Shown here: positions 27,001-30,000 of the stretch, piece by piece | Layout: each line of letters starts with the position of its first letter | How positions within the stretch are numbered: the stretch's first letter is position 1 | Virus record (IMG/VR): IMGVR_UViG_2718218100_000003 | Strand: one strand, 5' to 3' | Origin: a virus | Taxonomy: Duplodnaviria; Heunggongvirae; Uroviricota; Caudoviricetes | DNA length: 64,000 bases | Position numbers: made by a program

Positions 27001-30000
27001 GTCTCCGTGCTGATGTTTCTGCTGGGCGTAAGCGCCTGCAAGTCTCCGCCACCTGTGCAAAGTCAACGACCGGAGCCAGCAGCATGGGCGATGGAGAAAG
27101 CCCAGGACTTACAGCAGATGCTGAACTCAATTATTACCGTCTCCGAGGTGGAATCGACAAGATAACCGCGCAGGTTAACTACCTGCAGGAGTACATCAGG
27201 ACGCAATGCCTGAAATAATTTTTTTTGCAAATCACAAAGTCCATTTAATGAGCCTCGCGATGCGGGGCTTTTTGCAATAAATGCGTACCGCAACGCATGT
27301 TTTTTACACCGAACCTGCCCCTTTGGAATGGGCCTTTGAGGATACCAGTTAGTGCTGGCGAGCCTCGGTGGGCTGGTTTCCTGTGCGGCAAAGGTTCATT
27401 TCAAAGAGTAGGTACACGCTATGAAATCATTAACCCTCTTCAATCAACCAATCCGTATCGGTGAAGATGGCATGATCTGCCTCACTGATATGTGGAAAGC
27501 CAGTGGTAAAAGTGAATCTGAATCTCCGTACCACTACCTGCGAAACAAGCAGACCAAAGAGTTCTTGGCTGAGCTGGAGAAAAACCACGAATCTGTGGTT
27601 TTTACGGAACGCGGTGCGCACGGTGGAACTTATGGCGGAAAGTTCGTTGCTTATGATTACGCAGCATGGCTAAACCCCGGATTTAAATATGCAGCCTATA
27701 AAGTCCTCGATGATTACTTCACCGGAGAGCTTCATCATCGGAACAGCTTAAGTGCGCAGCTCAACATGAAATGTCATGAGTTTGATCAGAAAAAAGACAT
27801 GGCGAGCTTCTGTGGACAAGGCCTCGCGGCATGGCGCTACACGAAACCTGGTTTGATCGCTGAAATTAACTCCCTGGCTAACCAGTTGCAGATTTCGATC
27901 CCCGGGCTTCCGGGATGAGTGATCGTGTCATTGAATGCGCCTCCAGAGCGGGGCGCGACTTCTCAGAGTTCATGAAAGGCGAGAAGGGTATGATGGAAGC
28001 ATTGGCCTCGGTGGATGAGTTTGGCGAGCAGCTGCGCCTCAACGGCTGTGTCAATCATCACTTTGTTAGCTACATGATGCGGAACTCGATCATGCAGGCA
28101 TTCATGGACATGGCAAAAGCCGAGAGGAAAGAAGAGCGCCGGCGTAAGCGAGCGGAAGCAAAAGCGAAGTAGCCATTACAAAGCCCATCTACTGGTGGGC
28201 TTGATAATGGCTTATACCCTACACGGGATAACTTAACTGATATCCCTTTTAACGGATAAAGGTATTCAAGCCTGACACATCATGCGCTGTATCGTCGCTG
28301 TATTTCCGCATTAACCATGACCGTAGCCCGACGGGGAATTCCTTCTGCGCGAGTGTGCGGGGATAATCAAAAACGATACACACCGGGGTTTACCGCGTAA
28401 ACGGAGCGCGGCGTTCTCCCCTCATGGTCGCCCGTCCGGTGCGATGGTGGAAGAAACTGGAATCTGTTCAATAAAAAAACTGCCGTGTTGGAGTCACAGC
28501 AGTAATGTACTGATTGGGTAGAAGATTATTATTGTTATGCTTTATTTTTATTCTATATGGCTGATTATTTCAATTCGGAATTAATACAGCTAATGTCTGT
28601 GATTTTTTATAAATTCAGCAATATAAAGAAATAGTTATATGAACAGCCATCGCAGAGCATACTGTGTATCATTCTTTTTTATAGTCAACTGACGGGCATA
28701 TTTTATGTCTGCTGCCAGCTCCCGGCGGCAAGATTCAATGACCCACGCAGAAAAATTTTCTGAACCTTTCTGGTCAAGAGCGATGTTAATTTGTTCAATC
28801 ATCTGGTTTGGAAATCGGATGTTGCGGGTTGTTGTTCTGCGGGTCCGGTTTTTCGATGACATTTTCTTTCCTCTGGTGACAAGTTATATGGCGAGGATTT
28901 TACATGGCTGTGCTTCGTACGTTACCGGGCAGAATCAAAACTCTGAACACCCGGCGGGTGAATGTCCTGAAGGGTGAACAGCGTCGTGTCAGTGGCAGTG
29001 CCCGGGTTTCCCTCAAGCGTCGTATCTGGCTCAGGGATGCCGGACAGTGCTGTCTCTGTGGGCGTGTGGTTGACCTTTGTGACAGTGAACTCGATCACCG
29101 CATTGCACTTCAGTTCGGTGGTGGTAATGAGGAGACGAATCTCTGGACGCTCTGTACTGAATGCCATCGCCAGAAGTCAGTCAGTGAAACGGCGAGTGGT
29201 ATGCCGGACCCGACGCTGCCGGAGGTGTCCGGAGGTCATGGCAGGGCAGACGATATCATCGGACTGTGACCCGCCCTGGGGGGGGGGATCATCCGGCGAA
29301 AAAACGATCGCCCCGGACACCGCCCCCCGTCTCACGCAGAGAAAAAATTCCCGTTTCAGGGCAGTTAACATGTTAACTGGCTGCCCGGGCATTTTTGCGG
29401 TTTTTATCTTTATTATTCAGTTTGTTGTGCGGAAAAAATGTTAACAGGCTTTTTCAGCAAATGTTAACCAGGCAGCAGTTAACATTTGCGGCATGAGACG
29501 CCGGGAAAAATGGGCTGAACCATACCCGGCTGAGTGCGTTCTGGACCCGGGAGGAGGCTGTGCTGACAACGCAAAAACGAAAATTTGCGCTGGCGCTCAT
29601 GTCCGGGAAAAACAAAACAGCGTCAGCCATTGCCGCCGGTTATTCGGCGAAGACCGCCAGGGTTAAAGGCTCGCAGCTGGCAAAAGATCCTGAGGTGCTT
29701 GCGTTTATAGCCCGTAAACAATGCGAGACGGTGGAGGTGGATGAGGTTCCTGTTTACCGGCAGAAAAAATCAGAGCAGGAGGATAAACCCCGTCGCCGTG
29801 AGGCGGCTGCAATACCACAGCCGGACGAAAACAATCTGGAGATGCCACCGTCCGCGGTGATGTCTCCTGGTATTGAATATATGGAGGATGGTCTTCCCGA
29901 TCCGGTGAAAGCCATGGGGCGGATCCTGGTGGAGAACATTAATACCGACCCCAGGCTGGCGCTGGATGCGGCTTATAAGCTGGCGCAGTTCACGCACCAC

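Follow-up and report, generated by a model that had tools for sequence, protein, structure and literature searches.

Between the gene for an HNH endonuclease and the gene for the small terminase subunit (TerS) in a tailed virus (Caudoviricetes; IMG/VR record IMGVR_UViG_2718218100_000003) there is a gap of 290 base pairs (bp), and the question is what this gap does. We call the whole stretch of DNA analysed, 64,000 nucleotides (nt) long, the window. The original prediction saw in the gap a run of ten Gs, palindromes built on TTAAC and the gene arrangement of an HK97-type cohesive-end (cos) packaging site, and proposed that it holds the cos nick region and the sites that TerS binds. We conclude that the gap is very probably the cos site of an HK97-type, HNH-assisted packaging system, carried by a Shiga toxin (Stx) prophage of the Pankowvirus kind. 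The element itself is already known, since an HK97-type cos was mapped earlier in a near-identical published phage. Where the window would be cut, and which of its parts would be read by the terminase, can be argued from that phage and from the wider family.

The evidence that carries this conclusion comes from Lys8385Vzw, an Stx1 phage that was sequenced from induced virions and is 96-99% identical to the window over the gap. PhageTerm identified it as a cos phage with the 10-nt 3' overhang CGCCCCCCCT (MT225100; Zhang et al. 2021, PMC7946995); that paper gives the overhang only, not the flanking boxes or the repeats. The record is cut exactly at cos, ending ...GGACACCGCCCCCCCT and starting CTCACGCAGAG (at greater length, ...GATCGCTCCGGACACCGCCCCCCCT and CTCACGCAGAGAAAAAATTCCCGTTTCAGGGCAGTTAACATGTTAACTGG). 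This junction aligns base for base with window 29321-29331, and the join falls at 29330/29331. The nicks are therefore predicted before 29321 on the bottom strand and after 29330 on the top strand, give or take about 2 nt, in a C-run that lies 33 nt downstream of the ten Gs and 31 nt upstream of the first palindrome. In this relative neither of the outcomes that would have refuted the proposal is seen: its virion ends do not lie at another place, and they are not permuted as in headful packaging. The HK97-type arrangement that had been proposed stands. The TTAAC repeats remain good candidates for TerS binding; the nick region had to be moved to the C-run at 29321-29330, away from both the G-run and the palindrome. 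The features of the region, from left to right, are as follows.

28904-29269, plus strand: HNH endonuclease gene, 121 amino acids (open reading frame list; Pfam PF01844, E=2e-6; annotated as HNH endonuclease in relatives).
29278-29291, plus strand: G-rich box, G10 then ATCA, the left-most conserved cos element, polymorphic in length (alignment, relatives).
29313-29320, plus strand: left nick-flanking box, CCGGACAC (family alignment; equivalents CTAGACC, GGAAACC and GGACACC).
29321-29330, no strand assigned: predicted cosN, 10-nt 3' cohesive end CGCCCCCCGT (homology with Lys8385Vzw).
29331-29353, plus strand: right nick-flanking box, CTCACGCAGAGAAAAAATTCCCG, with an A6 tract at 29342-29347 (family alignment).
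29362-29379, no strand assigned: perfect 18-bp palindrome CAGTTAACATGTTAACTG, two ATGTTAAC sites head to head, enclosing TTAACATGTTAA.
29390-29435, no strand assigned: AT-rich spacer in which T-tracts recur about every 10 nt (29392, 29401, 29409 and 29421).
29436-29489, no strand assigned as a whole: three more ATGTTAAC sites, at 29436-29445 (plus), 29459-29468 (plus) and 29478-29487 (minus) (repeat search).
29560-30123, plus strand: terS, 187 amino acids, GTG start, N-terminal Terminase_2 DNA-binding region (PF03592) (open reading frame list, Pfam).
30120-31781, plus strand: terL, the large terminase subunit gene, 553 amino acids, ATPase and nuclease domains (Pfam PF03354, PF20441).

The window prophage belongs with the Stx prophages of the Pankowvirus type (the group of phages 1717, 2851, BP-4795 and YYZ-2008), and the gap with its flanks is 96-99.6% identical to more than 90 Stx-converting phages of that type. 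They and Lys8385Vzw have the same element, boxes and five ATGTTAAC sites included; Lys8385Vzw differs in having G7 where the window has G10, A7 where it has A6, and one other base in the overhang. It is important to realize that the ends of the phage records of these relatives carry no information about virion ends, because almost all of the records are prophage extractions. The phi330 record is linearised within terS and likewise tells us nothing of them.

Does the site look like a known cos? HK97 has a cos served by gp74 (HNH), gp1 (TerS) and gp2 (TerL) (Kala et al. 2014; Fung et al. 2022, PMC9410871; Chechik et al. 2024, PMC11331095), and it resembles the window in its gene order, HNH-cos-terS-terL, and in a 10-nt 3' overhang that begins CGCC. 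There G9-ATCA is followed by 32 nt (33 in the window), by GAC, by the overhang CGCCGCCAAA and by a T7 tract, with an A/T tract less than 30 nt inside the left end. The proteins, however, are barely related to those of the window: HNH is 26% identical over 57 residues, TerS has no significant similarity, and TerL, gauged through the TerL of the HK97-like phage SfV (which was also matched in our TerL search), is about 20% identical. HK97 also has no GTTAAC array, and its terS lies 50 nt from the end as against 230 nt in the window. The Shigella flexneri phages SfV and SfI, whose 10-nt overhang was found by sequencing virion ends (PMC3636060), have a G-rich box, GGGGAGGGGCGGGTCAAATC, then CCGGAC, the overhang TGCCCGCCCC and ATCGTTTTTTT with its T7 tract, all downstream of an HNH gene; they differ in belonging to another terminase clade (again TerL about 20% identical) and in lacking GTTAAC repeats. 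The layout that the window shares with these phages is a G-rich box about 32-34 nt upstream, GAC ahead of an overhang rich in C and, a short way inside the left end, an A/T tract. The genes agree with it as well, with HNH upstream, terS and terL downstream, and a TerL that has a Terminase_1-type ATPase and a nuclease, as in other HNH-associated 3' cos systems.

The cos of lambda is organised as cosQ-cosN-cosB, with R3-I1-R2-R1 sites bound by gpNu1 and the integration host factor (IHF); lambda has a 12-nt 5' overhang, no HNH partner, a gpA/gpNu1 terminase unrelated to that of the window, and an IHF site. The window resembles it in layout only. Both have an upstream element about 3 helical turns before the nick and conserved nick flanks, and in both a set of short sites recurs on the way from the nick to the small terminase gene, split by a bendable AT-rich segment; here these are the five ATGTTAAC sites, arranged much as in cosB. 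Unlike lambda, the window has a predicted 3' overhang of 10 nt, an HNH protein and a terminase of the PF03354/PF20441 kind rather than of the GpA family, and no IHF core was found in the gap (consensus WATCAANNNNTTR, at most 1 mismatch, 29270-29560).

The close relatives are too alike to reveal differences in conservation between the gap and the flanking genes, and distant loci were used instead: 80 prophage loci whose TerL is 58-84% identical and which come from Enterobacterales, Burkholderiales, Pseudomonas, Xanthomonadales and further groups. Their alignment gives a constant order of G-rich box, about 20 variable nt, left box, about 10 poorly conserved nt that correspond to the overhang, right box and terS. 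The predicted overhang at 29321-29330 is the least conserved stretch and sits between two conserved boxes, of which the right one is the most conserved block of the family, C.CACGC.CAGA[A/T]6-7YCCCC. In the virion chromosome this right box would form the left end, and by analogy with HK97 it is a candidate contact for the terminase or for TerS. The noncoding gap of the Salmonella phage SP-016 is 79% identical to window 29279-29377, and blastn found no match in the flanking genes; the whole gap between HNH and terS is only 106 bp there, and terS starts at the ATG of ...GTAAACATGTTAACAGCG.

Some other candidate signals in the region did not survive comparison. Two inverted repeats, I3 (GGAGGTGTCCGG at 29221-29232 paired with CCGGACACCGCC at 29313-29324) and I17 (the G-run paired with the C-run), were considered as cos symmetry elements and discounted because neither is conserved in SP-016, HK97 or the wider family; we take them to have arisen by chance or in this lineage only. 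A search of the gap for terminator-like sites found none, no Rfam family matched the region, and a scan of 28500-30200 gave no more promoter-like sites than shuffled sequence. The only promoter-like match in the gap is on the minus strand and is made of the TTAAC repeats themselves.

If the gap is a cos, what would TerS read in it? One set of candidates is the repeats to the right of the cut. The 12-bp palindrome first reported, TTAACATGTTAA, is indeed present at 29365-29376, inside the larger 18-bp repeat. Two further inverted repeats with TGTTAAC had been claimed along with it, and one of them is real, a perfect 12-nt repeat formed by GCAAATGTTAAC at 29457-29468 and, after a 9-nt spacer, GTTAACATTTGC at 29478-29489; the other is a single extra copy, AAATGTTAAC, at 29436-29445. 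The ATGTTAAC octamer occurs 5 times in 122 bp (29364-29485) and once more in the rest of the 64 kb; the whole window would be expected to hold 1.7, and chance falls far short of explaining such a cluster. All of the GTTAAC copies are invariant in every close relative that we examined. The T-tracts of the spacer at 29390-29435 make it a putative intrinsic bend between the two groups of sites.

The position of the repeats says something about their history. From the SP-016 alignment it follows that the first palindrome of the window sits where terS begins in relatives: in SP-016, Enterobacter and Citrobacter, terS starts at the ATG or GTG of GT(A/T)AAC(A/G)TGTTAACAG. An additional 182 bp (29378-29559) in the Stx lineage carries the three further copies. 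The present terS start of the window, GTGCTGACAACG, is a degenerate copy of ATGTTAACAGCG, and its Shine-Dalgarno sequence is GGAGGAGG at 29550-29557. We also observe an open reading frame of 24 codons, MLTGCPGIFAVFIFIIQFVVRKKC, at 29370-29444 on the plus strand, which begins at the ATG that is the terS start in the Salmonella, Enterobacter and Citrobacter relatives and turns strongly hydrophobic further on. It could encode a leader peptide that is translated, or it could be what is left of the terS start after its displacement.

A comparison of TerS over 83 loci (the 80 prophage loci, the window, SP-016 and Pseudomonas phage Alize) separates two groups. The first, of 43 loci, is homologous to the window TerS from residue 1; the second, of 37, shares at most the C-terminal 60 or so residues with it, and some of its members have no detectable similarity. 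Three loci (L051, L059 and L061) have no terS reading frame of at least 90 codons. At least two GTTAA or TTAAC motifs lie between -120 and +18 of the terS start in 40 of the 43 loci of the first group (mean 2.6, expected 0.16), as against 1 of the 37 others. The typical form in the first group, TTTGTTAATGGCTTTAACAG, straddles the start codon of terS. In 37 loci of high G+C content TTA makes up only 0.8% of the terL leucine codons (16 of 1927), and it is nevertheless codon 3 of terS in 27 of the 35 loci that have leucine there; the use of so rare a codon points to selection on the DNA itself, by which the motif would be maintained. The simplest reading is that the GTTAAC repeats are most likely the recognition sites of this N-terminal class of TerS, and we lean towards the view that they serve the TerS of the window in this way.

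Six loci with TerS of the other class (L063, L068, L075, L078, L081 and L096) share a DNA string of their own over the terS start, (G)GWAATCAGCAAATGGCAGG, and they span Pseudomonas, Dyella, Methylibium, Duganella and Stenotrophomonas. This hints that each class of TerS may have its own site overlapping its own start codon.

The best alternative keeps the same cut and has TerS read the A-tract box, as in HK97, leaving the GTTAAC repeats as an operator or leader that governs the transcription or translation of terS, or as relics of repeated duplication of its 5' end. The minimal site of HK97 TerS, the only case that has been dissected, is a single 15-bp A-tract site at +15 to +29 that is read by its DNA shape (PMC11331095). 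Because of that A-tract we regard the box at 29331-29353 as at least as good a candidate for the TerS contact as the palindromes. The box is moreover conserved in both TerS classes, which share the C-terminal 60 or so residues, and the GTTAA..TTAAC pair lies across the start codon of terS in most relatives, where autoregulation could naturally act. The terS starts of relatives are also resembled by the copies at 29370 and 29438 (ATGTTAACAGG). Several points speak against this alternative. The window TerS has no detectable relation to that of HK97 and carries a Terminase_2-type N-terminus, which HK97-style recognition does not need. The actual terS start has lost the motif (GTGCTGACA) and the five perfect copies upstream are invariant, which ill suits a start-codon operator, and relics would be expected to decay rather than to stay identical. 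We hold this alternative to be the less likely one and prefer the GTTAAC repeats as the sites.

The G-run raises a separate question. It occupies 29278-29287, is the sole run of at least 8 Gs in the window, and is intergenic: it starts 9 nt past the stop codon of HNH, and 272 nt separate it from terS. As the slippage prediction would have it, its length varies among 42 close relatives drawn from IMG/VR contigs and phage records: G7 in 8, G8 in 16 (the mode), G9 in 9, G10 in 5, G11 in 3 (the record of phage 1717 has G11) and G13 in 1, although part of this variation may be homopolymer assembly error. The neighbouring A-run varies too, from A5 to A7. About 70 of the 80 distant loci have a run of 4-9 Gs in the corresponding place; (A)TCRAAAG usually comes next, and the conserved A/T-tract box lies about 50 nt further on. 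A G-rich box is also kept in HK97 and SfV despite almost no similarity between the proteins, which argues that it is a feature of the site itself and that G10 is, on the comparative evidence, the local form of a conserved G-rich cos box. Its position is that of lambda cosQ, about 3 helical turns before the cut and at the end that is packaged last, and with modest confidence we suggest by analogy a role in termination or docking.

Could the ten Gs instead be a contingency tract that switches expression of HNH or terS, or the function of cos, by phase variation? Homopolymers of this length are known to slip and the relatives do spread from G7 to G13, even if some of that spread may come from assembly. 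But the run lies outside the reading frame of any real gene and has no promoter-like hexamers beside it, distant phages keep a G-rich run here that is interrupted or only 4-6 nt long and hence not slippery, and viable phages carry both G7 (Lys8385Vzw) and G10 (phi330). We consider this idea very improbable. Weaker still, and hardly credible, is the notion of a headful pac site or a dead remnant with no role in packaging: Terminase_2-type TerS proteins are best known from pac phages (SPP1/SF6) and the window prophage may not be inducible, yet PhageTerm finds fixed 3' cohesive ends in near-identical Lys8385Vzw, those members of this TerL clade that have been characterised package by cos and have an HNH gene alongside, different genera conserve the noncoding gap, and the region is present and conserved in complete E. 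coli genomes (counted below).

Two observations on the left half of the site are worth recording here. An ISEc20 element (IS110 family) sits exactly within the cos G-run of one locus (L004 1546-3004; LC567822, PPompW prophage), at the place homologous to window 29283 or thereabouts, with G7 and G5 flanks. To the left of it in that locus is a tRNA cluster, so the prophage has neither the lysis genes nor HNH, and of cos it retains the right part only. G-runs may be a target of ISEc20. There are also two GATC (Dam) sites in the left half of the window cos, at 29287-29290 and 29306-29309. The GATCGC that immediately precedes the left box is shared by the enteric relatives (SP-016, Proteus, Citrobacter) but not by the relatives from Pseudomonas and Burkholderia.

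Other phages bear on the exact position of the nicks. The cos of phiL7 is reportedly a 9-nt 3' extension, TTACCGGAC; we rely only on the boundary of the phiL7 record, which falls after CCGGAC. The contig of the Pseudomonas virion BR143a ends at the GGAC/AGAC of the left box too, and its two ends overlap by 4 nt. The Pseudomonas CF and BR virion assemblies have scattered record starts, with terL beginning at 453-550 in ten of them and the eleventh, CF183a, starting inside terL. These records place the ends in the cos region only, not at exact nicks.

Several points weigh against our interpretation, and we believe they should be stated together. Virion ends are known from a relative only, and the window prophage may be defective elsewhere. 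Its overhang, CGCCCCCCGT with G at 29329, is one base off the mapped CGCCCCCCCT of Lys8385Vzw, a difficulty softened by the fact that the window variant is the commonest one (21 of 40 relatives, phages 1717 and phi330 among them). PhageTerm may err by 1-2 bases, and in SfV and phiL7 the left nick comes directly after GGAC and not after GGACAC. The phiL7 boundary is also 10 nt further from the A-tract box than that of Lys8385Vzw, which may just reflect which end of the record carries the overhang. HK97 TerS binds an A-tract site and has no repeat array, so the GTTAAC sites might serve another purpose, and their covariation with TerS could partly be that of a gene linked to its own 5' end.

With the gap taken as a cos, packaging might run as follows, the ends being those of the relative only and the protein steps ones that we infer. 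TerS would recognise sites to the right of the cut on concatemeric DNA, either the A-tract box at 29331-29353 or the five GTTAAC-type sites at 29362-29489 or both, with the phased T-tract spacer possibly bending the DNA between them. It would then recruit TerL, and TerL with HNH would cut each strand once, near 29320/29321 on the bottom and near 29330/29331 on the top; these nicks, separated by 10 nt, would leave 3' overhangs of CGCCCCCCGT. Packaging would proceed rightwards from CTCACGCAGAG through terS and terL and stop at the next cos. There the G-rich box, 33 nt before the cut and the last DNA into the head, may act as an upstream element of recognition or termination in a cosQ-like position. 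Its G10 would drift in length by slippage, harmlessly because the tract forms the outer edge of the site.

The flanking genes fit this scheme. Both borders of the gap lie where they were first placed, with HNH ending at 29269 and terS beginning at 29560. An HNH gene is in the same position in HK97, SfV, phiL7 and SP-016, and judging from its sequence and place the window protein appears to be a packaging-associated nuclease directly upstream of cos. Stimulation by an HNH protein of the cleavage that TerL makes at cos is on record for HK97 gp74 only. The window TerL is 84% identical to that of SP-016 and 53% to that of phiL7, which are the limits of a range (53-84%) that includes Pseudomonas CF121c. 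Downstream of terL come a protease-capsid fusion and then the portal gene. The portal-like protein (833 amino acids, 33994-36495, plus strand) has in its C-terminal third, as seen in the translated reading frame, about 3.5 tandem copies of a unit of about 47 residues (PVPRDGRDYDP.VLQKAVNDAVANIPQPADGKSLTPDDVRPMLEQMVKEAVSHI). Directly upstream of HNH, on the opposite strand and inside what is expected to be a rightward late operon, lies a gene for a DUF3950 protein of 75 amino acids (28635-28862, minus strand).

Taken over the family, these comparisons suggest a more general idea, which we advance tentatively and would not yet bet on. HK97-like, HNH-assisted cos sites across the Proteobacteria might share an undescribed modular grammar. 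One part would be a universal G-rich box about 3 helical turns upstream, a cosQ-like termination signal or a docking signal for HNH or TerL, in which the length of the homopolymer is free. The other would be downstream sites that swap along with the N-terminal domain of TerS. Here these would be GTTAA/TTAAC pairs, which normally lie over the terS start and which the Stx lineage has amplified to five and detached from it by the 182-bp insertion. Both the family-wide grammar and the covariation of motif with TerS class appear to be undescribed, though they are incremental, and the general picture of cos packaging is unchanged. Their value is that they yield testable candidates for parts of HK97-type cos sites that have not been dissected, namely the G-rich upstream box and the repeats specific to a TerS class.

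The cos region is present in 1243 of the 5426 complete E. coli genomes; the prophages that carry it are mostly Shiga-toxin prophages and lambdoid ones related to these. A genome has as many as seven copies, and among the strains listed the eight that match best, O157:H7 included, have 3-5 copies each, so several co-resident prophages of one genome have a single packaging specificity in common. Knowing the exact cut site and its boxes helps to orient and delimit the genomes of Stx phages and to design transduction tools based on cos, and it helps to predict which prophages and satellites the terminases of others among them can package.

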